DNA of 64,000 bases from an uncultured Actinomycetes bacterium (GTDB taxonomy: Bacteria; Actinomycetota; Acidimicrobiia; IMCC26256; PALSA-610): positions 532,979-596,978 of the forward strand of contig CAWASN010000007.1 of NCBI GenBank assembly GCA_963784845.1, given 5' to 3'. The translations under genes and the position numbers were made by a program. Every line of letters begins with the position of its first letter. Position 1 is the first letter of the stretch. Under the pieces are notes generated by a model. That model was given only the letters and a program-made list of their open reading frames with translations, ran no database searches and was not told the origin of the DNA. Shown here in pieces: positions 10,198-63,461 of this stretch.

Positions 10198-12167
<1,970 letters not shown>

Positions 12168-12236
12168 GAACGATCCCTGCTCGAGTACCCGGTTGCAAGC
12201 TACCGGGACGCTCGGTGTTCGGGCGATACTGCACCG

Positions 12237-13324
12237 GTGATCCAGCCTCAGTTGAACGAGCTCGGGTTCTATGTCCTCGCGGGAGCGCCGCAGTCGCCGG
12301 TCGAGCTGATCGAGGAAGTCGCCGCGGGCGAGGCCCTCGGGCTCGGTTCGACGTTCATCTCGGAACGGTTCAACATCAAGGAGGCGTTCACCCTCTCGGG
12401 CGCGGTCGGCGCGACCTCATCGACGCTCGGCGTCGCGACGGCGGCGACGAATCACAACACGCGGCACCCGATCGTGACTGCCGCGCACGCGACCACGATG
12501 CACCGTCTCACGGGGGGCCGGTTCACGCTCGGGCTCGGGCGAGGGATCGCGCCCCTGTTCGACGCGTACGGCATCCCGCGCATCACGACCGCGCAGATCG
12601 AGGACTTCGTCGGCCTGATGCGGCGGCTCTGGAAGGGCGAGGTCGTGTTCGGCCACGACGGACCTGCGGGCACGTTCCCGGTGCTGCATCTCGACGCCTC
12701 CTTCGACGAGGACATTCCCTTGCTGTTCGTCGCGTTCGGGCCAATTCGCTGGCGCTCGCCGGGCGCTGCTTCGACGCGGTGGTGTTGCATACGTTCTTCA
12801 CGGACGAAACGGTCGAGCGGTGCGTCGCGGCCGTGCGACGAGCGGCCGAGGAGGCCGGACGGGATCCCGCATCGGTGCGCATCTGGTCGTGTTACGCGAC
12901 GATCGGCGACCACCTCCCCGAACCGCTGCGGTTGAAGAAGACGGTGGGACGGCTCGCCACCTACCTACAGGGTTACGGCGACCTGCTGGTCGAGACCAAC
13001 GGCTGGGACCCGGAAGTGCTCGCGCGCTTCCGTGCGGACGACGTCGTGTCGACCTTTCCGGGGGCGCTCGACACCAAGGCCGATACCGCGACGCTCGAAC
13101 ACGTGGCGACCCTGCTGCCCGACGAGTGGCTCGAACCCGCGGCGACGGGCGACGCGAAGCGGTGCGCGGCGCGGGTCCTGCACCAGTTCGACCTCGGGGT
13201 CGACGGTGTCATCATGCACGGCGCCACGCCGACCGAGCTTGCACCGATCGTCGAGGAGTACCGCACCGTCCGCCCGCCCGATCGCTTCGACGGATGCGCC
13301 GCGAATCCGGGGAGGACCCGATGA
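12237..13324 (+). pseudogene. LLM-class (luciferase-like) flavin/F420-dependent oxidoreductase; one frameshift near 12740
   Basis: GTG 12237 VIQPQLNELGFYVLAG..GLGSTFISERFNIKEA..FTLGLGRGIAPLFDAYGIP sits in the frame of ORF 11877..12935. It continues as NSLALAGRCFDAVVLHTFF...GVDGVIMHGATP in the frame of ORF 12215..13324. Confidence 0.75.
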
Positions 13325-42854: not shown

Positions 42855-44210
42855 GGTTCGCTCACCTCCACGACGAAGCGCGCGCCCCCTCCGCCTCGAT
42901 CTTCGACCCACACACGCCCGCCGTGGACCCGGCAGTGCTCCTCCACGAGCGCCAAGCCCAGTCCGCTGCCTCGTTCGGATTGCTCGGCGCTTCCCGAGCC
43001 TCGGGCGAACCGAGCGAAGACGGTGGACCGTTCCTCGACAGGTATCCCGGGGCCGGCATCTTCGACCGCGATGCGCAGACCGTGACCATCCGTGCCCGCC
43101 AGCTCGACGCGGACGGGTCCTCCGGCATAGCGATCCGCATTCTCGACGAGATTGGCGATGATCCGTTCCACGCGTCGTTTGTCGAGGCGCATCGTCGCGG
43201 GCGTCGAAGGCATCACGTCGATCGCGACGTCGTCGTGCCCGAGGCGACGCATCACCGAGGTAACGAGCTCGGGTGGTCCCACGGCTTCTGCGGCCGCGTC
43301 GCCCGCACCCGCGTCCATGCGCGATATCTCGAGAAGGTCGAGCACCAGCTGTTGGAAATAGCGCACCTCCGAACGCAGCACGTCGATGGCCGGACGCGTC
43401 CGGTCGTCGGCGCGAACGTTCGAGCACGTCGATCGCGGCCGAGATCGCGGTCAACGGCGTGCGCAATTCGTGGGTGACGTCGGACGCGAACCGGACTTCT
43501 TGCTCGATGCGGCGCTGCAAGGCTTCGGCCATTCCGTTGAACGACGCCGCGAGCGGAGCGAGGTCGGCGTCGCCGTGGGCGTCGAGCCGGGTGCCGAGAC
43601 GCCCACGCGTGATCTCGGCGGCCGCGATCGAGAAGAACCCCACCGGTCTGAGGACCCGGCGGCTCGCGTAACCACCGACGGCGGCCCCGAGCACGGTCGT
43701 GGCACATGCCGCCGCGAACAACGACCAAGCGAGTGTCGAGAGCGTGCGTTCGAGCTCGGCGAACGAGAACACCTCGAAGTACGCGCGATCGGTCGCCCCG
43801 AGCGGAACGCCGACGACCTGCACCGGCTTTCCGTTGATGTGCGTACGTTGGCGGGCCGCGTGCCCGTCCGCGGTCATGCGCAGGAGCGAGCTGGGCAAGT
43901 CCTCGTGCCCGATCGCGACCGACGATGCGTACCACTGACCCCCGACCCTCACGATCGGTTGATCGCCGCTGCTCGCCGTCAGTGACGTCAGGATCGTGGG
44001 GACGTCCTGCGTCTTGGAGCGCAGCGCGTCGCTCACCGCGCGAGCGTTGACGAGCGCCTGGCGCAGCGCGAGAGACTGGCGCTGGTTGATGAGGTACGAC
44101 CGCGTGAGCTGATAGGTCAACAAGGACAGGCTCGCCGAGAGCAGGAGCGCCAGCACCGCGAAGGCCACCGCCCCTCGTGCGCGCAATCCCAGTCGGCGCG
44201 GCTCAGCCAT
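42851..44210 (-). pseudogene. sensor histidine kinase (MtrB-like: TM-sensor-TM-HAMP-HisKA-HATPase); frameshift near 43400
   Basis: H-box FASDVTHELRTPLTAI in the 760 aa ORF frame. N/G boxes IIANLVENADRYA, VEDAGPGIP and GSGLGLALV lie in ORF 42851..43381. Confidence 0.85.
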
Positions 44211-45764: not shown

Positions 45765-45803
45765 CTCCGTGTCCGCGGAGTGCGCGAACAGGAGAGGTCG
45801 AAC

Positions 45804-46058: not shown

Positions 46059-46104
46059 GGAGAGCGGGTGACCGGGATCGAACCGGCATGGCCAGCTTGG
46101 AAGG
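46059..46104. repeat. attL: 46 bp copy of the 3' part of tRNA-Gly plus 4 nt
   Basis: ggagagcgggtgaccgggatcgaaccggcatggccagcttggaagg is identical to 53710-53755. It diverges at 46105 (t versus c). Confidence 0.9.
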
Positions 46105-46211
46105 TCGGGCGGCTGCGCCGCCCGACCTTCTTGTGCAGACGTTTGTGCAGGTCAACGCACATATCGGTTGACCGCCCAATACCGCCCGTGCCCACCCGTG
46201 CCCGATAGTTA

Positions 46212-46234
46212 GGGCACGGGGAGGGCACAAACGC
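46212..46234. repeat. 23 bp island-internal direct repeat (candidate integrase arm-type site), partner at 53623-53645
   Basis: gggcacgGggagggcacaaacgc versus gggcacgTggagggcacaaacgc (22/23). Additional GGGCAC/GTGCCC copies lie at 46189-46205. Confidence 0.6.
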
Positions 46235-46490
46235 GCCGCCACTGTTCGGCACCTACGCTTGCGCGAGTTCGGTCGACCCATGTCCTCGGAAGGGAGCTCG
46301 CGCTGGATCCGATCACGGGTGGGCTCCTCGTCTTCCTGGTCGTCTTCGTGGCTTCGCTGGTGCTGATGGCCGGCTTCGGCGTCGCGGTTTGCCGCGGGGT
46401 TCGGAAGGAATAAGGGCTCCGCGAGCGGTAGCCGTGCCGCGGTCGCGCACGACGACCGAAGGCAAGGTCATCCAGGGCGTGCAGACCTCG

Positions 46491-47475
46491 GCCGGTTGCG
46501 CTTAGGGGTCTAGCGGTTAGGGCGTGAGTCGGGGCTCCATCGGTTGCGCCAGTCGATGAGCTTGGCGGTGATGAGGAGCGCGGTGACGAAGCAGAGTTGC
46601 GCGTGTCGGTGTCGTGTTCGGCGGTCGGTGTTGCGGCGGAGTTGCCCGTAGTTCGACAGCCACGAGTTGGTGCCTTCGACGACCCATCGCAGTCCGAGTT
46701 CGAGTGGTCGTCTCTCGGTGGGTCCTTTGGGTTTTCGGTGTTGGATGTTCAGATCGGCGAGTCCGTAGCTGGCGAGATGCCGACGCGTTTTGGGGTAGTC
46801 GTAGCCGCGGTCGAGATGCATGGTGTCGATGTCGGCGAGCAGTCCGGCTCGTGCGACATCGTCAAGGGTTGGGCCGAGAAGGTTGAGCTCGTTGCGGTTG
46901 GCGCCGTCAATCGCCCATCCGATCGGGATGCCGTTGGCGTCGACCGCGATCGACCACTTCCAGCCGAGTTTCGCCCGGTCCGTGGGGTTGATTCCGGTGC
47001 CTTCACCACCGCAGGGCGCTTTGTGCAATGAGCCATCGAGGGCAACTTCGGTGAGGTCCAGGCCGATGATTCGGTCGTAGGCATGGATCGCGTCGACGCG
47101 CAGTTGGTCGAACACGCCGGCCGCGATCCATTCGTCGCGTCGTGATCGCAGCGTGGTGTCGGATACTTGCCGTTCGAGGATCGCTTCGACGCTGACCCAC
47201 GAGCAGCCCGTGACGAGTCGGATCAGGATCCCCCAAAAGCACAGGCGATCCGCGACTCGGGGCCGGTGACAGCCCAACGGATGATGGTCCGGAATCGGTG
47301 GGATCAGCGGTTCGATCGCTGCCCAGACGGCATCTACCACTTCGGGTTCGAGCGCGCGCATGATGACGGGGCCTCCACTGTGTCGTCGTGTTTGGGTCGC
47401 ACTCGGGATCAAACCCGAGCCAACCCGACGACCGGTGGATGGCACCTACTCGCGCGGCCCCTTAGCGCAACCGGC
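46491..47475 (-). mobile_element. IS5-family insertion sequence (DUF4096 + DDE_Tnp_1-like transposase)
   Basis: The transposase ORF is flanked by gccggttgcgcttagggg (46491-46508) and its inverted partner ccccttagcgcaaccggc (47458-47475), matching 17/18. CTTAG occurs at 46501-46505 and 47461-47465. Confidence 0.75.
46510..47361 (-). CDS. IS5 family transposase
   Basis: MRALEPEVVDAVWAAIEPLIPP...CHRPRVADRLCFWGILIRLVTGCSW (DUF4096-like HTH). DDE region: LDGSLHKAPCGGEGTGINPTDRAKLGWKWSIAVDANGIP...MHLDRGYD...VVEGTNSWL. Confidence 0.85.
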   Translation of the reverse strand: MRALEPEVVDAVWAAIEPLIPPIPDHHPLGCHRPRVADRLCFWGILIRLVTGCSWVSVEAILERQVSDTTLRSRRDEWIAAGVFDQLRVDAIHAYDRIIGLDLTEVALDGSLHKAPCGGEGTGINPTDRAKLGWKWSIAVDANGIPIGWAIDGANRNELNLLGPTLDDVARAGLLADIDTMHLDRGYDYPKTRRHLASYGLADLNIQHRKPKGPTERRPLELGLRWVVEGTNSWLSNYGQLRRNTDRRTRHRHAQLCFVTALLITAKLIDWRNRWSPDSRPNR

Positions 47476-47600
47476 ATATCTGTGCCGATCTTGGCGACCG
47501 TTTCGTCGAGCCTGCGTGCATCGTGATGCAACGTGTGTGAACTCGGCTTGACGCGAGGTTTCTCGTCGCGTTTTCGCGACTCGACGCGCCATTCACGGAT

Positions 47601-47867
47601 GTGGACGAGCTCTCGACGTTGTTGGACATCGGTGCGGTGGCGGAACGTCTGTGCGTCACCGAGCGACACGTTCGTAGGTTGGTCGCCGAGCGCCGGATTC
47701 CGTACGTCAAGGTCGGCCGCTTCGTGCGCTTCGATCCCGCCGACGTCGCGGACTGGCTCACCGCGGCTCGCGTACCGCCGTGTTCACTGACGCACCCGCT
47801 GCGTATGATCGACGCGGAGCTCGACTCGGCCCGATCACGCGCCGCTGGCTCCGGATCGCGCCGCTGA
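47601..47867 (+). CDS. xis: excisionase-family (MerR-like HTH) DNA-binding protein
   Basis: LLDIGAVAERLCVTERHVRRLVAERRIPYVKVGRFVRFDPADVADWL. It lies immediately upstream of the integrase. Confidence 0.8.
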   Translation: MDELSTLLDIGAVAERLCVTERHVRRLVAERRIPYVKVGRFVRFDPADVADWLTAARVPPCSLTHPLRMIDAELDSARSRAAGSGSRR

Positions 47868-47904
47868 GGCGCCTCGTCACGTCGACCGGCACGGGAGCCG
47901 AACG

Positions 47905-49035
47905 ATGAGCAGGCGCCGCACGTTCGGCTCTATTCGTACGTTGTCGTCCGGTCGCTACCAAGCGCGCTACACGTCGCCCGACGGCGTCCGCCATCGTGCG
48001 CCCCGCAGCTTCTCGACCAAAGCTGAAGCGAGTCAGTGGCTCGCGAAGATCGAGACCGAGTTCGCGAGAGGCACTTGGACCGATCCCGACGCCGGTCGCG
48101 TTTCGCTCGACGGGTACGCGCGGAGCTGGGTCGAGACCCGCGCCAACCTGCGACCCCGCACCGTCGATCTGTACGAGTCTCTGCTCGAGCACCACATCGT
48201 CCCGGCCCTCGGCGATCACGAGATCGGCACCCTCAGCGCCGGGACCGTGCGCCGTTGGTACGCGCAGCTCGTCCGGAGAAGCGGCCCGGGATCGCTGACT
48301 CCGGCCAAGAGCTACCGGCTCCTACGGACGATCCTGAACACCGCCGTTGCCGACGGCATCATCGCAAGGAATCCGTGTGCGATTGTCGGCGCGGGGATCG
48401 AACGCAGCGCCGAGCGCCCGGTCGCGACGCTGGCTCAGGTCTGGGCGTTGGCCGACGCGGTCCCGCCGCACTTCCGTGCGCTCGTCCTCACGGCCGCGTT
48501 CGGCGGCCTCCGATTCGGCGAGCTCGCGGGGCTAACGCGGGATTGCATCGACATCGCCGCCGGCACGATCACCGTCCGCCGTGCTCTCGTCCAGCGCGAC
48601 GACGGAACCCTGCAGCTCGGTCCGCCCAAGAGCGAAGCCGGCCGCCGCACGTTCACGATTCCGGCCGCGCTCGTGCCCGAGCTTGCCGCCCATCTCGACG
48701 GGTACGTCGAGCAGCGCGACGACGCGCTCGTCTTCGTCGGCGCGAAAGGCGCGAGGCTGCGCCGGTCGAACTCGTCGGCGGTTTGGAAGAAGGCGACGGA
48801 GAAGGTCGGCGTTCCCGGTCTGCGCCTCCACGACCTGCGCCACACGTGCAACACCCTCACGGCCGCGACCGGTGCGAGCACCCGCGAGCTGATGCACCGC
48901 ATGGGCCACGCCTCACCGCGCGCTGCCCTGCGCTACCAGCACGCCACGCGCGAACGCGACGAGGTGATCGCCTCCGCGCTGAGCGCCCTGATTGAGGCGG
49001 CGCCCGGGAGAGTGTCAAACGAGATAGTCGAGTGA
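47905..49035 (+). CDS. int: tyrosine-type site-specific integrase
   Basis: N-terminal SAM-like domain (YQARYTSPDG..FSTKAEASQWL). Catalytic set: GLRFGEL (R), KSEAGRRTFTIP (K), HDLRHT (HxxR), MGHAS (H), LRYQH (Y). Confidence 0.9.
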   Translation: MSRRRTFGSIRTLSSGRYQARYTSPDGVRHRAPRSFSTKAEASQWLAKIETEFARGTWTDPDAGRVSLDGYARSWVETRANLRPRTVDLYESLLEHHIVPALGDHEIGTLSAGTVRRWYAQLVRRSGPGSLTPAKSYRLLRTILNTAVADGIIARNPCAIVGAGIERSAERPVATLAQVWALADAVPPHFRALVLTAAFGGLRFGELAGLTRDCIDIAAGTITVRRALVQRDDGTLQLGPPKSEAGRRTFTIPAALVPELAAHLDGYVEQRDDALVFVGAKGARLRRSNSSAVWKKATEKVGVPGLRLHDLRHTCNTLTAATGASTRELMHRMGHASPRAALRYQHATRERDEVIASALSALIEAAPGRVSNEIVE

Positions 49036-49095
49036 CGGAGAACGGAGTCTGCAGGGCCGAGCGACTCGGGTGCCACGGCTTGTTACGGTTGAAAA

Positions 49096-50454
49096 ATGGT
49101 CGACGTTGCGATTTCGGCAAAGTACGAAACCCTCGAGCCCGGCGCCCGCATCGAGCTTTACAACGGTGCGCTCGGCTTGTCGTGGGCCGCCAACACCTTC
49201 GTGGGCACGGGATCGATCCACTTCGAGTGGCAACCATACCCACGCGTTGGTTTCAATGTCTCGGTTTCTTTGCCACTCGATGTAGGTGATGTCGGAGATC
49301 AGGTCCGCGTCGAGTTGCTCGATACGGGAGGCAGCGCCGAAGGTCGGCCTTGGCGAATCACCGACACGTTCAACGACGGCGACGAGTTGCAGCGCACGGT
49401 CGAGGGATCGATTGCCGAGGAGCTCCTCGTCGGCAACCCCGCCGCGACGGATTCGGTCATCTTTCACGTTCCAAACTTTCCCGACTATGTCGGAACGCCG
49501 GTGCAGGCAACACAGGCAGGCGGGAACACGCGGGCTGCCAGACTAACTGCAACGACAGCGCAGTGGATCGTCGAACTGGACGCTGTACCTCACGCGGGAG
49601 ATCTCGCAGCTGCGCTGACCAAGCGAAGAGGCTTCGGGATAACGCACGTAGGTCGAATCCGCCGCTTGGACGGTGCCGCAGTTCCGTACGCCGACGTTGA
49701 AGCGATGTGCAGTCAGCTGTACTGGTGGCTTTCCCTACTGAGAAGTGAGCGAACCGGCCCGATTCTGGTGATGGGAGTTCACGAGGGCGTGACGGTATGG
49801 GAGACATGGCAATCTCCGACAGTGTCTCCGTGGCGCGGGCGGTGGAGTTGGTTGCCTCGATTTCCAATCGAAGTGGACGGGCATCCTGTTTCTGTCAGCG
49901 GCGGTGACACGCTCCGGTGTCTGAGCGACTCGTGGGCAAACCCGGACTACCAACGGGCGATCACGCGAGCGATCGATTGGTACACGCAGAGCGTTTCAAG
50001 CGGCTATGCGGCAACGACGGTCATTCTCGCGCAGGCCGGTTTAGAACTGATGTCGTGGCTGCGACTCGTGCGTGACATGGGCATCAGTGAGGATGGGTTC
50101 AGCAAGTTGAGCGCTGCTGATTCGCTTCGGCTCGCTCTGAGCGTCGCCGAAATCAACACAGACGTTCCCGCCGCCGCACCTCAACTGTTCGCCGCAGCAG
50201 AGCCAGGCCAGGGTCTGCAGCGACTAGACGGACCTGCTTCGATCACTGAGATTCGCAATGGCGCGGTGCATCCGAAGCCATTGCAACGGTTCGCGGATCC
50301 GATGGCCGCGATTCAAGGGGGTCTGCTGGCTATTCAGTTCCTTGAACTCATGTTGCTTCATCGCCTGGGCTACACCGGCAGCGCTTACGACAGGATTACG
50401 TGGGAAGAGCCGGAGCCCGTACCATGGGCGCCTGCAACCGTGGTTCAGGGTTGA
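49096..50454 (+). CDS. hypothetical 452 aa protein with C-terminal HEPN-like (Rx4H) helical domain; candidate ApeA-like defence RNase
   Basis: Intact ORF 61 nt downstream of int in a lower-GC region. The C-terminal helices read AITRAIDWYTQS, TTVILAQAGLELMSWLRLV, SAADSLRLALSVAEI, then ITEIRNGAVHPK (R at 50254, H at 50269), then AAIQGGLLAIQFLELMLLHRL. Confidence 0.6.
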   Translation: MVDVAISAKYETLEPGARIELYNGALGLSWAANTFVGTGSIHFEWQPYPRVGFNVSVSLPLDVGDVGDQVRVELLDTGGSAEGRPWRITDTFNDGDELQRTVEGSIAEELLVGNPAATDSVIFHVPNFPDYVGTPVQATQAGGNTRAARLTATTAQWIVELDAVPHAGDLAAALTKRRGFGITHVGRIRRLDGAAVPYADVEAMCSQLYWWLSLLRSERTGPILVMGVHEGVTVWETWQSPTVSPWRGRWSWLPRFPIEVDGHPVSVSGGDTLRCLSDSWANPDYQRAITRAIDWYTQSVSSGYAATTVILAQAGLELMSWLRLVRDMGISEDGFSKLSAADSLRLALSVAEINTDVPAAAPQLFAAAEPGQGLQRLDGPASITEIRNGAVHPKPLQRFADPMAAIQGGLLAIQFLELMLLHRLGYTGSAYDRITWEEPEPVPWAPATVVQG

Positions 50455-50599
50455 CGTACGTGATGCTCGACGTTGTTGCTGTGCCGCTCAGTGAGCTGAC
50501 TCCCACGCCACGGCGCTCGGGGCAGCTGTGGCGCCGGGCTGTCCGGAGAGCTGAAGCCTTCGGGAAGTAGACGCGCCATCGCCGCGACCGGAAAGCTCG

Positions 50600-51646
50600 C
50601 TACGTTTCGAGTTGCCTCGTGCAATAGGCACATGTTTCCGCGTCATGCCGGCGCGGTGCGTCGGGCGGTTCGTGGATGTAGAGCTGTTCTCTTCCCTCTC
50701 GGTCGCGCTTTGGCGGCACGAGCGCCTCGTCGAAGACGCCCTCGGTGCCCTCGAAGAGATCGCCTTGTCCGGAGTCCCGAGTCTCGATCCTCTTGCGTAC
50801 GGCTCGCGCTGCTTCTGCCATCGTCGGGAACTCTTCGGCGGCGCGGTCGTAGAGGTGAGTCATGATGTCGTTGCCGGCCTGAGAATCCGTGGCGAAGATC
50901 ATGCGATACAGCGGATGATTCGCTTCGTTACGGATCTCGAGCTGGTGAGTCCATCGATAGCCAAGTTCATGCTCGAGCCGCCACCGCATTAGTTCGACGT
51001 ACTCCGCACGCGTGGCCGTCGGCGTGATCTCGTCGTCGAGCTTGGCCTGCCAGATTGCGTGCCAATCCGGCGTTCCGAACATCGCGGTGATCGCAGCGTT
51101 GTCGGCGTCACGTACGACCCCGCTCGTCGGTAGCAAGCGCGCGAAGAGCGCGTCAGGGAAGAGCATCCAGAGCTCAACTTTCGTCTTCGCCTTCGGGCCT
51201 TTGTGTTCGGCGAGGGCCCCGAGCGTCGCCCACGTGTAGTGCGGACCGTTGGGGTCGATGAACGCAAAGGTCGGTGCCCAGGCGGCGTCGACCTTGCGGA
51301 GATCCGCAAGGGCGGTACGGATGCTCTCGTTGCTGTCGCCTGGATACACGATGAGATCGCGGTCCGGGTACTCCGCGTTGAGAGCGGTCTTCAGTTTCGT
51401 TGCGTTGGGCTCGAGCTCGAAGAAGCGGAGATGCGTGAACGGTGGGTCGTCGACGTTGCGCACGATTCGCGCCGATCGATCAATCGGATTCTTCGTGACA
51501 CGGTCGTAGTTCTCGGGCTCGCCACCGAACAGATCCAGGTACACCGTCTTCGTAGCCTTGAGCTTTGTCGTGGTTGTGAACGTGTTCAGATACCGCTCGA
51601 GCAAATCGAGCTTGTACTTGGTCCAGAACCCCCACGGCCGTGACAC
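50600..51646 (-). CDS. tcmP: three-Cys-motif partner protein TcmP
   Basis: GTG 51646 lies 6 nt after the DUF5131 stop. The N-terminus is WGFWTKYKLDLLERYLNTFTTTT..KTVYLDLFGGEPEN. Later motifs are FFELEPN, IVYPGDSNESIRTALADL and TFAFIDPNGP. The family was recognised from memory of its typical N-terminus and its pairing with DUF5131. Confidence 0.7.
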   Translation of the reverse strand: MSRPWGFWTKYKLDLLERYLNTFTTTTKLKATKTVYLDLFGGEPENYDRVTKNPIDRSARIVRNVDDPPFTHLRFFELEPNATKLKTALNAEYPDRDLIVYPGDSNESIRTALADLRKVDAAWAPTFAFIDPNGPHYTWATLGALAEHKGPKAKTKVELWMLFPDALFARLLPTSGVVRDADNAAITAMFGTPDWHAIWQAKLDDEITPTATRAEYVELMRWRLEHELGYRWTHQLEIRNEANHPLYRMIFATDSQAGNDIMTHLYDRAAEEFPTMAEAARAVRKRIETRDSGQGDLFEGTEGVFDEALVPPKRDREGREQLYIHEPPDAPRRHDAETCAYCTRQLET

Positions 51647-51652
51647 GCAAGC

Positions 51653-52400
51653 TCACGCTACGGCGCGTTCGGGCATCTCGTCGTAGACGGCGCCGTCGAG
51701 ACTGCGCCCGTGCGCCTTTGGCGTGCGTCCTCCCCATTGCTTGAAGAAGAACGGGACGCTCGGCAACTGCGCACTCATCGCGGATCGATCGGACCCACGA
51801 AGGATCCATCGGCCGCGCATTGAACCCGCTTTCGCCGCCGGCAATAACCCAATGAATTGAGGCTAAATCAAGGTCGTCGAGCGGGCCGAGGAGTGGCTCG
51901 CAAGAGAGGAAACGCACGGCCGCGGGGACCTGAGCCAGGTGTTCGATGCGGAATGTGTACTGAGCGTTCTCGACGCTCACACCCATCCACACGTTGTCCG
52001 GCCACTCCAGCCGGTCGGCGAGTTGAGCAAGCCGTTTCGAACGCTTGGTGAGGACTTGGTACTGGTGCTGCGGTGTTTCCGCCATGACGTCGAAGACCTG
52101 TCGAATGAAGTCAACCGTTACCTTCGGGTGGAACAGATCGCTCATGCTGTTCACGAATATCGTGCGTGGCGTCGACCAACTCCTTGGGATCGACAACGCG
52201 TCTTCATGCATCGTGAGCGCGAAACCGGGGCCGGACGTTCGCGGCGCTGCCGTCGTTCTGGTACTTCGGTTGCCCCATCGCCTTGAGCCTGCCGCGAGCG
52301 TCATGGCGTAGCAGTGATCACAGCCTGGGCTTGTGCGGTCGCAGCCCGTGGTCGGGTTCCACGTTGCCTCGGTCCATTCGATACCGCTCTTGTCGCCCAT
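51653..52400 (-). pseudogene. DUF5131 / phage Gp37-Gp68 family protein (three-Cys motif); compensated double frameshift near 52240-52295 and a further frameshift near 51790
   Basis: GAGGGGGA precedes ATG 52400. SGIEWTEATWNPTTGCDRTSPGCDHCYA, RTIFVNSMSDLFH, YQVLTKR, NVWMGVSVE, RFLSCEPLLGPL, HWVIAGGESG. FFFKQWGG follows in ORF 51653..51844. Confidence 0.8.
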
Positions 52401-52677
52401 GCAGCGATCCCCCTCAACGCGTCGACTTCCAGCGAAGCTTGAACCACATCCACGTCGCCATCAACAACTTCGTCGATGATGACTGCAGGGTGTGACAGCG
52501 TTGCACGATCCGACAGCGTTCCGCGAAACTCGCGCCCCGATTGCTCACTCTGGGTCGCCGACGATGTTTGTCGGTTCATTATGAGGAGCGTCTCCACGAG
52601 AATCTCGACGAACCTGTCCGTCGTATCCTGGCCACATCGCACCGGGTGTATCCGAATCCGTTCCACCAGGAGGGACC

Positions 52678-52934
52678 GTGACGAAGCCACCTCGCCTCGA
52701 CCTGTGGGCCGACTTCAACAACGAGGACGACGACGGCTTCGGTTGGTCGGCGCTCCATCACGCGAGCGATCCGGCGCTCGTGACTCCGGGGCGCGGGTGA
52801 TCGCCGGTTCTGAGCGGGCATGGGCCGTCGCCGAAATCATCGCCGTCGACGACGACGGCATGGTTCACTTTCGTGTGCTCCCGCGCAACGATCCCGACTC
52901 CCAGCGAGTCTTGGCGGACGCTTCGAATGGCTGA
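52678..52934 (+). pseudogene. small hypothetical protein (about 85 aa) translationally coupled to the HicB-like gene; frameshift near 52795
   Basis: CAGGAGGGA precedes GTG 52678. VTKPPRLDLWADFNNEDDDGFGWSALHHASDPALVTPGR, then in the next frame VIAGSERAWAVAEIIAVDDDGMVHFRVLPRN..SNG*. The stop overlaps ATG 52927 by 8 nt. Confidence 0.45.
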
Positions 52935-53125
52935 CGACGCGCGTTCGTTCCGCGCCATCTACGAGCACGATGCAGCCGACGGATCGTGGCTCGTGCGCGT
53001 CGAAAGCCTCGACGGCTGCCACACCTACGGCCGCACGAAAGTGGAAGCAGCAGGCCGGATCGAAGAAGCCCTCGCCGCCTGGCTCGACAAAGGACCCGAG
53101 CGAGTTCACGCTCTCGCACGCCTGA
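52927..53125 (+). CDS. HicB-like antitoxin-fold protein (UPF0150-type N-terminal domain); 3' end assumes a one-base shift near 53090
   Basis: MADDARSFRAIYEHDAADGSWLVRVESLDGCHTYGRTKVEAAGRIEEALAAWLDK matches the HicB N-terminal pattern (Y.V.+E.D.DG.W.A.V..L.GC.T.G.T..EA...I.EAL). The shifted reading DPSEFTLSHA* ends at 53125. The unshifted frame runs on to 53304 over the opposite-strand gene. Confidence 0.55.
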
Positions 53126-53149
53126 AGCCCAGACGGGGCGGGCTACAGC

Positions 53150-53557
53150 GACTCGATCACCTCTCACGCCAAGAGCAATTGCCTCGGAGCCGAGCAGGAA
53201 CTCGTCGTCTTGAGGATCGAAGTAGACACCGTCGGCGAGGTCAGCGAGTGAGGCGGCCGCGGAGAACGCCGAGGCCAACTCGTCGACTGCGCCCGACCAC
53301 GTGAATGTGGCGCACAAGTCGCGGCCGCCGATTCGTTGGACGGCGTGCGGGTACGCGGCCGTGATCGACGAAGCATCGCCCAACGAGAACTCGAATCCGG
53401 TTGCTGCTCCGCCAAAGGTCACGGGCACGAAACCGCGGTCCGCAGCAGGATCAAAAGCCTCGGCGAGAACGGTCGGGAAGTTGCTCGCGTCGAGACGCTC
53501 CTGCCACTTCTCTCGACCGGGCACCTCTGCGCTTGCGACAAATACGTGCAGCTCCAT
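53150..53557 (-). CDS. hypothetical protein (3' end uncertain)
   Basis: ATG 53557 MELHVFVASAEVPGREKWQERLDASNFPTVLAEAFDPAADRGFVPVTFGG...GVYFDPQDDEFLLGSEAIALG. The downstream part of the open frame turns Arg-rich, so the true stop is unclear. Confidence 0.4.
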
Positions 53558-53622
53558 CGACACGCCCGACCCTCGCAGGTCGGTCGGCGGTCGAGCAACC
53601 GGTGTCGTCGGCGCGTTGCTTC

Positions 53623-53645
53623 GGGCACGTGGAGGGCACAAACGC
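53623..53645. repeat. 23 bp island-internal direct repeat, partner of 46212-46234
   Basis: gggcacgtggagggcacaaacgc. It is followed by the hairpin gtgcagac-N10-gtctgcac at 53660-53685. Confidence 0.6.
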
Positions 53646-53709
53646 TGCTCGCCTAGACCGTGCAGACGTTCGTCAAGGTCTGCACACGTGCCTTGACCAG
53701 GACTTTCTC

Positions 53710-53755
53710 GGAGAGCGGGTGACCGGGATCGAACCGGCATGGCCAGCTTGGAAGG
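53710..53755. repeat. attR: 46 bp core repeat inside tRNA-Gly
   Basis: Identical to 46059-46104. Confidence 0.9.
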
Positions 53756-53784
53756 CTGGGGCTCTGCCATTGAGCTACACCCGC
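53714..53784 (-). tRNA. tRNA-Gly (anticodon UCC)
   Basis: The reverse complement GCGGGTGTAGCTCAATGGCAGAGCCCCAGCCTTCCAAGCTGGCCATGCCGGTTCGATCCCGGTCACCCGCT folds as a 71 nt cloverleaf. It has a 7 bp acceptor stem, anticodon loop CTTCCAA and T-loop TTCGATC. CCA is not encoded. Confidence 0.92.
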
Positions 53785-63292: not shown

Positions 63293-63389
63293 CGGCCGAG
63301 TCTGGCGCGTTTGGCGGGCGCGGCGGCGACCGTCCGGACTCGGCACGGGATCATCCGGGGGCTCCCGAGGCCTCCACGGCATTTGCGAG

Positions 63390-63461
63390 TCGGGGAGGGG
63401 GGATTTGAACCCCCGACCTCGTGCTCCCAAAGCACGTGCGCTACCGCTGCGCCACTCCCCG
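63390..63461 (-). tRNA. tRNA-Pro (anticodon UGG)
   Basis: The reverse complement CGGGGAGTGGCGCAGCGGTAGCGCACGTGCTTTGGGAGCACGAGGTCGGGGGTTCAAATCCCCCCTCCCCGA is 72 nt. It has anticodon loop TTTGGGA and T-loop TTCAAAT. Confidence 0.92.

Follow-up and report, generated by a model that had tools for sequence, protein, structure and literature searches.

The described systems closest to the locus analysed here are the pSAM2-type actinomycete integrative and conjugative elements (AICEs) and a looser group of small non-autonomous islands. AICEs of the pSAM2 type measure about 11 kb, insert into the 3' end of a tRNA gene with a direct repeat of about 45 bp, and carry a helix-turn-helix (HTH) excisionase gene (xis) of the HTH_17 type directly upstream of the integrase gene (int), together with RepSA, an FtsK/SpoIIIE transfer protein (Tra) and a NUDIX/Pif protein. 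Small non-autonomous islands, among them integrative mobilizable elements, islands resembling cis-mobilizable elements (CIME-like) and tycheposon-type tRNA islands, combine a tyrosine recombinase, attachment (att) sites in a tRNA 3' end and variable cargo, and have no transfer machinery of their own. We examined a stretch of 64,000 nucleotides from an uncultured Actinomycetes bacterium (the whole stretch is called the window below), in which positions 46059-53755 are a real tyrosine-integrase element in the 3' end of tRNA-Gly(UCC). This element resembles the second group in these general features, and it shares with the pSAM2-type AICEs the integrase lineage, the HTH_17 Xis directly upstream of int and the tRNA 3'-end target with its direct repeat. 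However, it lacks RepSA, the FtsK/SpoIIIE Tra and NUDIX/Pif, it is smaller (7.7 kb, and ~3.8 kb for its counterpart in a related genome), its left att site (attL) lies only ~0.5 kb upstream of xis, and its cargo sits between int and the tRNA, not upstream of xis. It also differs from the second group in having no recognisable relaxase, oriT or other function for mobilisation, and a helper would presumably have to mobilise it. We interpret the locus, with a probability of about 0.72, as a small island of AICE lineage at tRNA-Gly(UCC) without replication (rep) or transfer (tra) genes, whose variable cargo most likely serves to exclude phages or other mobile elements.

An integrase element in a tRNA-Gly gene

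A perfect 46 bp direct repeat (the two att cores in Table 1) brackets the 7.7 kb island and lengthens to 69 nt at 87% identity. Searched with up to 3 mismatches, a 38-mer of the repeat core occurred exactly twice in the window and 0 times in shuffled sequences. ARAGORN predicted a single nearby tRNA, tRNA-Gly(tcc) on the minus strand, and this complete gene stands at the right end of the island, where an initial annotation made from the sequence had placed it. The same annotation had both the perfect repeat and its coordinates right, but it divided the repeat into 42 nt of tRNA and 4 further nt, whereas the ARAGORN prediction gives the 3' 43 nt of tRNA-Gly(UCC) plus 3 nt. The first 29 nt (5') of the tRNA are missing from the left copy, which is thus a displaced 3' fragment and does not reflect a tandem tRNA duplication. 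Such a duplication, which the initial annotation had raised as a competing source of the repeat, was ruled out by the truncated left copy, the single tRNA prediction and the island-specific arm motifs that follow the core.

Those motifs, a and b, are mirror-placed around the cores, and each is present in exactly 2 copies per 64 kb against an expectation of 0.05. In the predicted circle, attP would read b-a-core-a-b with all motifs in one orientation, which is the layout expected of arm-type sites for an integrase with an N-terminal arm-binding domain; the N-terminus of the window integrase gives a weak match to Arm-DNA-bind_4 (E = 0.0017). The excisionase-type HTH gene named in the initial annotation is recovered by TIGR01764 and HTH_17, and the tyrosine integrase, for which a full R-K-HxxR-H-Y set had been claimed, is recovered by PF00589, with its catalytic residues R...K...HDLR...H...Y readable in the translation.

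The G+C content is 0.686 and 0.694 in the two flanks and 0.639 over the whole island. Within the island it is 0.694 for xis-int, 0.638 for an insertion sequence (IS) and 0.615 for the cargo block at 49073-52940, with the step falling sharply at the int stop codon. Three hand counts given earlier (30/60, 35/60 and 40/60) proved exact, and the larger spans agree with them (cargo 0.615 vs. flanks at ~0.69). Scans of the island open reading frames (ORFs) against Pfam, NCBIfam, PADLOC and PHROGs detected no capsid, portal, terminase, tail, replication or transfer domain; the PHROGs and Pfam classes represented were integration/excision and unknowns only, and the Pfam scan of these ORFs found no RepSA and no FtsK/SpoIIIE. 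The description of the locus as a small integrative accessory island without replication, transfer or capsid genes, and not as a prophage or an integrative and conjugative element, is therefore upheld by the att repeats, by xis and int, and by these scans. The island call holds because the att repeats derive from the tRNA, arm motifs are present at both ends, xis and int are intact, and the low-G+C cargo is missing from a related genome.

Lineage, backbone and variable cargo

A metagenome scan with the integrase returned 80 loci (23-78% identity over the matched segment), the near-full-length relatives having 41-66% amino acid identity. At ~15 of the longer loci, only 95-190 bp separate the int stop codon from a tRNA-Gly gene (tcc or ccc) on the opposite strand; in the window the distance is 4.7 kb. 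One of these relatives, on a soil metagenome contig (L017, 97-11298), is a complete, textbook pSAM2-type AICE: an 11.2 kb element at tRNA-Gly with a 45 bp direct repeat and genes for NUDIX, FtsK/SpoIIIE, RepSA (495 bits), an HTH_17 Xis and Int. Its integrase has 50% amino acid identity to that of the window, and the two elements share the tRNA target and the type of Xis. The closest integrase (66% identity) belongs to a 10.2 kb element with a 46 bp repeat (L007), which carries IS110 and ISL3 copies, a phosphotransferase gene and a 126 aa ORF between int and the tRNA; at another locus (L009) an IS21 occupies the int-to-tRNA gap. Judged from these gene orders, insertions are tolerated in the gap that separates int from the right-hand arm sites. 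Because the integrase relatives adjoin tRNA-Gly and L017 is a complete AICE, the window element is best read as a putative offshoot of the AICE integrase lineage, without the replication and transfer genes that it once had. A tRNA-Pro(tgg) gene was also observed at 63389-63461, ~9.6 kb from the window tRNA-Gly; at many loci with related integrases (L017, L020, L026, L029, L030, L037) tRNA-Pro(tgg) directly adjoins the target tRNA-Gly.

We also compared the locus with related genomes. When the 240 aa protein encoded next to tatA was used to query a collection with one genome per species, only two related metagenome-assembled genomes (MAGs) came up, L005 and L006. L005, the closer of the two, is 92% identical to the window at the nucleotide level over core genes, but synteny ends at the start of tatA (L005:10727, corresponding to window position 45768) and no tRNA lies within 10 kb beyond that boundary, which points to a rearrangement or a large insertion. 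Since synteny is lost at tatA and no tRNA follows within 10 kb, L005 says nothing about the tRNA-Gly site. L006 is 84% identical to the window over 3.8 kb of core genes and carries this element too, likewise at tRNA-Gly. Its version is ~3.8 kb long and comprises the att core (as a perfect 45 bp repeat of its own), xis, int, a gene resembling HicB and, at each end, the two arm motifs. Nucleotide identity between the window and L006 is 94.9% in the non-coding attL arm and 90.9% in xis-int, compared with 84.4% in the flanks, so that the backbone is closer than its surroundings, as would be expected if the element had been exchanged more recently or were strongly constrained.

The 3.9 kb cargo block at 49073-52940 has no counterpart in L006. 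Homology ends 38 bp past the int stop codon and returns, at the protein level, in the N-terminal domain of the HicB-like gene (51% amino acid identity over 53 aa), and the sequence to the right of this domain differs again. The order int, HicB-like gene, arm sites is the same in L006, with 1.8 kb between, and for this reason the HicB-like gene and the right-hand arm sites belong with xis-int. We therefore define the backbone, common to the window and L006, as the att and arm sites, xis, int and the HicB-like gene, and count as variable cargo the genes that L006 does not share, namely the YopA-like gene, DUF5131/TcmP, the small ORF and the orphan. In L006 itself, the N-terminal domain of the HicB-like gene and its C-terminal HTH part are split by a frame change (L006:13169-13961), possibly through real decay or sequencing error. 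A protein search for further relatives returned one 3.9 kb contig (L097, of the L006 population), which stops at the att core; it ends after tatA where the core begins (L097:3816-3938), and this may be an assembly break induced by the repeat or by variants.

Two sequence features of the left arm may bear on expression. A perfect hairpin (11 bp stem and 3 nt loop, GGTCGGGCGGC-TGC-GCCGCCCGACC), followed by TTCTTGT, lies just inside attL and is kept in L006. It is possibly a terminator-like element downstream of tatA; a consensus terminator scan missed it, and the promoter and terminator scan of the region was uninformative. A perfect 23 bp palindrome (46491-46505 / 47462-47475) lies ~140 bp upstream of xis, and the IS5-family element, whose identification in the initial annotation is borne out by its NF033580 score, has landed in the middle of it. 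On either side of the insertion stands a copy of the duplicated target, TTAG (46502-46505 and 47462-47465). In L006 the IS5 is absent and the palindrome is uninterrupted (CCGGTTGCGCTTAGCGCAACCGG). An inverted repeat at the IS ends was considered as terminal repeats of the IS and rejected, as it consists mostly of the split target palindrome and the TTAG duplication. This palindrome possibly serves the xis-int module as an operator or a terminator, and the later IS5 insertion may have changed the control of xis and int.

The cargo and adjoining genes

The PADLOC and remote-homology searches that the initial annotation had recommended gave candidates for DUF5131/TcmP and a family for the 452 aa cargo protein, although PADLOC contributed nothing to the latter. 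This protein had no match in our local Pfam, NCBIfam, PADLOC and PHROGs libraries. Two newer Pfam families, YopA_M and YopA_C (precomputed PF26308 + PF27216), are annotated on the exact protein and on every one of the 40 homologues found. It is homologous over its full length to YopA of Bacillus phage SPbeta (tblastn against yopA, 22.5% identity, 96% coverage, E = 4e-20), for which we know of no function. A profile search returned 3710 YopA-family clusters (50% identity), nearly all of ~450 aa, and literature searches on the family gave annotation mentions only and nothing functional. In an alignment of 33 members, AQAGxE (312-317), R387-N388-x3-H392-P393 and E417 are invariant. RNxxxH is the HEPN signature, a form of Rx4-6H in which the Arg is usually followed by a polar residue. 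Like HEPN RNases and abortive-infection effectors such as ApeA, the 452 aa protein has Rx4H with Asn after the Arg and a conserved Glu in an earlier helix, and it is likewise encoded by a stand-alone gene, often one with defence or mobile-element genes around it. It differs from ApeA in having no PADLOC ApeA match, and HEPN_Apea was matched by one homologue only (E = 0.3).

An AlphaFold model of the protein (predicted local distance difference test score, pLDDT, 94.3) has a beta-rich N-terminal region, a mixed alpha/beta middle region and a helical C-terminal domain, the last reaching a pLDDT of 94.5 when modelled alone. Compared with PDB folds, the C-terminal domain drew 5 HEPN entries among the top 25, with target-normalised TM-scores of 0.46-0.53 and every E ~1 or more, and a HEPN fold is plausible for it on this model. 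A PDB sequence-profile search with the 452 aa protein gave noise only (Hsp70 substrate-binding domain, E ~0.1), and the full-length model found nothing significant in the PDB fold search. The folds that residues 1-240 (window 49096-49800) match, though weakly, are those of Hcp-like proteins and of phage tail-tube, distal-tail (Dit) and baseplate proteins; such matches dominate the full-length searches of PDB and BFVD (best E = 3e-4 to 4e-3), and the modelled likeness of the N-terminus to tail-tube, Dit and Hcp proteins is suggestive only.

Six genomic contexts of YopA homologues were inspected, and no partner gene is conserved in any of the six. Two adjoin type I restriction-modification (RM) genes, one of them with GmrSD and the other with a Schlafen/AlbA_2 protein and a RepSA-integrase gene, and a further two are surrounded by many mobile elements or toxin-antitoxin genes. 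The genes near yopA in SPbeta itself include one with an HTH, one with a RES domain and one for superinfection exclusion. The initial annotation had described the cargo as defence-like and uncharacterised. The restriction genes in 2/6 of these contexts, together with the matches of the DUF5131/TcmP pair to PDC-M41 and PDC-M30, sustain that description, and our literature searches likewise gave no functional account that would change its statement that none of the cargo has an experimentally defined function.

The pair that had been annotated as DUF5131/TcmP was recovered by PF07505 and TIGR04474. Like the genes of the PADLOC candidates PDC-M41 and PDC-M30, the two are adjacent and both proteins give strong hidden Markov model (HMM) matches, but unlike those candidates the window DUF5131 is frameshifted as assembled. 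One frame gives a PF07505 match at positions 2-230, and a second frame gives one at 190-243. Deletion of the A at 51760 gives a 248 aa DUF5131 that matches profile positions 2-243 of 243 at 332.9 bits; no independent record of the 306 aa DUF5131 ORF was found. In the repaired frame the two genes are on the same strand, 4 nt apart. PDB sequence searches with TcmP and the repaired DUF5131 matched no structure, and literature searches on DUF5131, TcmP and PDC-M41/M30 gave annotation mentions only, with no reported function.

DUF5131 is found in 180 phage records, mainly of Mycobacterium and Gordonia phages, often with no nearby TcmP match. The window DUF5131 has 68% identity to gp40 of Gordonia phage PantheRoc, and the window TcmP has 38% identity to PantheRoc gp41 and to BaxterFox gp42. 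In PantheRoc (L096, 31175-34331), the TcmP gene gp41 adjoins gp40, is near the integrase gene and is co-oriented with the immunity repressor gp42. A position in the lysogeny module beside the immunity repressor is typical of prophage genes expressed in lysogens, including exclusion genes. As to arrangement, PantheRoc gp40 and gp41 are convergent whereas the window pair is co-directional, and the phage TcmP gene overlaps gp42 by 4 nt on the same strand. The BaxterFox 'immunity repressor' gp43 was considered as a hidden DUF5131 and rejected, since it is not one. The defence gene Hna of Sinorhizobium meliloti has a TcmP gene as its neighbour (PMC12445080).

The small ORF and the HicB-like gene had been annotated together as a cargo pair. 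The small ORF keeps that place, albeit frameshifted as assembled, but the HicB-like gene belongs to the backbone, and its likeness to HicB is limited: UPF0150 (19.2 bits) and HicB_lk_antitox (18.1 bits) both score below the gathering score of 27, and phrog_497 matches at E = 6e-5. The small ORF stop codon overlaps the HicB-like ATG, and the repaired small ORF has no family match and is not HicA. For the orphan gene, which lies beyond the HicB-like gene, a search of 5.8 billion proteins turned up a single homologue (P0042, 137 aa, 71% identity).

Table 1. Features of the integrative element and its target tRNA, in window coordinates
Feature	Position	Strand	Evidence or remark
attL core, displaced tRNA-Gly 3' end	46059..46104	.	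left repeat copy; same in L006
Hairpin, followed by TTCTTGT	46103..46127	+	sequence reading
Arm-type repeat a, left (GTGCAGACGTTyGTsmAGGTC)	46133..46153	+	pair also in L006
Arm-type repeat b, left (GGGCACGkGGAGGGCACAA)	46212..46230	+	pair also in L006
IS5-family insertion sequence, 956 bp (transposase ORF 46510-47445)	46506..47461	-	NF033580, 144.9 bits (cut-off for IS5-family transposase, 110 bits)
xis, excisionase-type HTH (Xis / recombination directionality factor)	47601..47867	+	TIGR01764 E = 2.6e-11; HTH_17 E = 3.4e-10; phrog_1840 excisionase
int, tyrosine integrase, 376 aa, intact	47905..49035	+	PF00589 E = 7e-17; phrog_1 E = 2.4e-62
YopA-family protein, 452 aa	49096..50454	+	YopA_M + YopA_C; motifs AQAGxE, RNxxxHP
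TcmP (three-Cys-motif partner), 348 aa	50600..51646	-	TIGR04474 E = 2.9e-45; PDC-M41A E = 4.5e-25
DUF5131 (Gp37/Gp68-type, CX7CX2C three-Cys motif)	51653..52400	-	PF07505 E = 2.9e-88; PDC-M41B E = 6.5e-90
Small ORF, ~85 aa repaired, internal duplication	52678..52934	+	split by 1-nt deletion in G-run 52788-52791
HicB/UPF0150-like gene, open frame to 53304	52927..53304	+	only first ~60 aa recognisable; conserved backbone
Orphan gene, ~137 aa	53147..53557	-	convergent; open frame to 52865, coding-type codon bias ends near 53190
Arm-type repeat b, right	53623..53641	+	motif scan
Arm-type repeat a, right	53660..53680	+	motif scan
attR core, inside intact tRNA gene	53710..53755	.	right repeat copy
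Intact tRNA-Gly(UCC), integration target	53713..53784	-	ARAGORN

Proposed function and rival explanations

In the mechanism that we propose, Int, guided by the arm sites, would recombine attP with the tRNA 3' end, and Xis would direct excision. The backbone would have lost RepSA, the FtsK/SpoIIIE transfer protein and NUDIX/Pif. Because its replication and transfer genes are lost, the element alone could at most excise and reintegrate, and we infer that a helper such as a related AICE would be needed for movement from cell to cell. A variable slot would extend from the int stop codon to the right-hand arm sites, filled here by a low-G+C 3.9 kb block with the YopA-like gene, DUF5131/TcmP and the small ORF. 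The YopA-like protein would be a single-protein abortive-infection effector whose N-terminal beta domain senses an invader and whose C-terminal RNxxxH (HEPN-type) domain cuts RNA. DUF5131 and TcmP may form a radical-SAM-like, Fe-S-dependent pair that modifies or targets nucleic acid, akin to the pairs found in the lysogeny modules of temperate actinophages. By analogy, exclusion of phages or mobile elements seems the most likely role of the cargo. A bolder version is quite doubtful in our view: that the YopA family is an unrecognised single-gene abortive-infection system, in which an N-terminal tail-like decoy or sensor of assembling phage tail proteins would switch on the C-terminal RNxxxH RNase, and that the gap between int and the arm sites is a dedicated slot for exchanging defence genes among soil actinobacteria.

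Several observations weigh against an exclusion island that is still mobile. The defence role would rest on guilt by association: PDC-M41 and PDC-M30 come from a guilt-by-embedding screen and were never experimentally validated (PMC10855318), and 2/6 YopA homologue contexts are among metabolic genes. The HEPN-like label of the initial annotation stands as to the invariant RNxxxH, but no HEPN match was significant, with a best E of ~1 in the fold search and none by sequence profile. With the IS5 now upstream of xis, the element may no longer be mobile. As assembled, DUF5131 is frameshifted by an extra base at 51760 (+1), and the small ORF is frameshifted as well. In L006, the integrase (11933-13106) changes frame near WVETRA/NLRPRTV, again possibly through real decay or sequencing error. 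Finally, the empty site (attB) that the initial annotation had proposed to look for was not found in the two related MAGs, as the site in L006 already holds this backbone and L005 has a rearrangement at tatA.

The IS5 insertion, the frameshifts in DUF5131 and the small ORF, the L006 frame breaks in int and the HicB-like gene, the lack of an empty site among the two relatives and the missing rep and tra genes would all suit a fixed, decaying remnant of an old AICE or prophage integration, with att and int as relics and the cargo as functionless leftover foreign DNA. We consider this unlikely. The 46 bp repeats are still perfect, the four arm motifs are kept in two genomes whose core genes are 16% apart, xis and int are intact in the window, and the backbone is 91-95% identical where the flanking housekeeping genes are 84% identical. 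Because the cargo differs between the window and L006, its turnover appears to have been recent. The frameshifts may themselves be assembly errors and are not callable as pseudogenes, because an MtrB-like sensor kinase gene in the core likewise carries an indel (an extra A at window position 43416 relative to both related MAGs) that splits it into two frames. The distance of 4.7 kb between int and the tRNA, against 95-190 bp in the wider family, and the sharp G+C step at the int stop codon could instead suggest a tandem composite, in which a xis-int element adjoins the remains of a second island (YopA-like, DUF5131/TcmP, HicB-like and orphan genes) whose internal att site was lost. However, no third att core or internal arm motif was found in the window with up to 3 mismatches allowed, and L006 shares the order of int, HicB-like gene and arm sites across its shorter gap; on these grounds a tandem origin is very improbable, and the inserts of other relatives in the same gap (the IS21 of L009 and the 126 aa ORF of L007) also speak against it.

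A different question is whether the cargo is immune in function at all. DUF5131/TcmP could act in nucleic-acid or tRNA modification, for self-protection or counter-defence, and the YopA-like protein and the HicB-like pair could be addiction or stabilisation modules. The many phage records of DUF5131, often with no nearby TcmP match, are in line with this, as are the occurrence of YopA as an SPbeta prophage gene near a RES-domain toxin gene and the placement of DUF5131 by RadicalSAM.org in the radical SAM superfamily, as an uncharacterised subgroup with no function (PMC9477430). This explanation seems to us somewhat unlikely, as the PantheRoc pair is in a lysogeny module with TcmP co-oriented with the immunity repressor, the PADLOC embedding approach groups the pair with defence genes, and YopA homologues adjoin RM and GmrSD genes.

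Seen as an island of AICE lineage with probable exclusion cargo, the locus is of an ordinary type, a tRNA-targeting integrase element with accessory genes. What it would add is a pSAM2-type AICE backbone cut down to Int, Xis, attP and an exchangeable slot, which may be a simple natural carrier of accessory genes in uncultured soil actinobacteria. The YopA family and DUF5131/TcmP are both widespread, and finding them here on so clean and minimal a mobile element speaks for a role that is accessory and probably directed against invaders.

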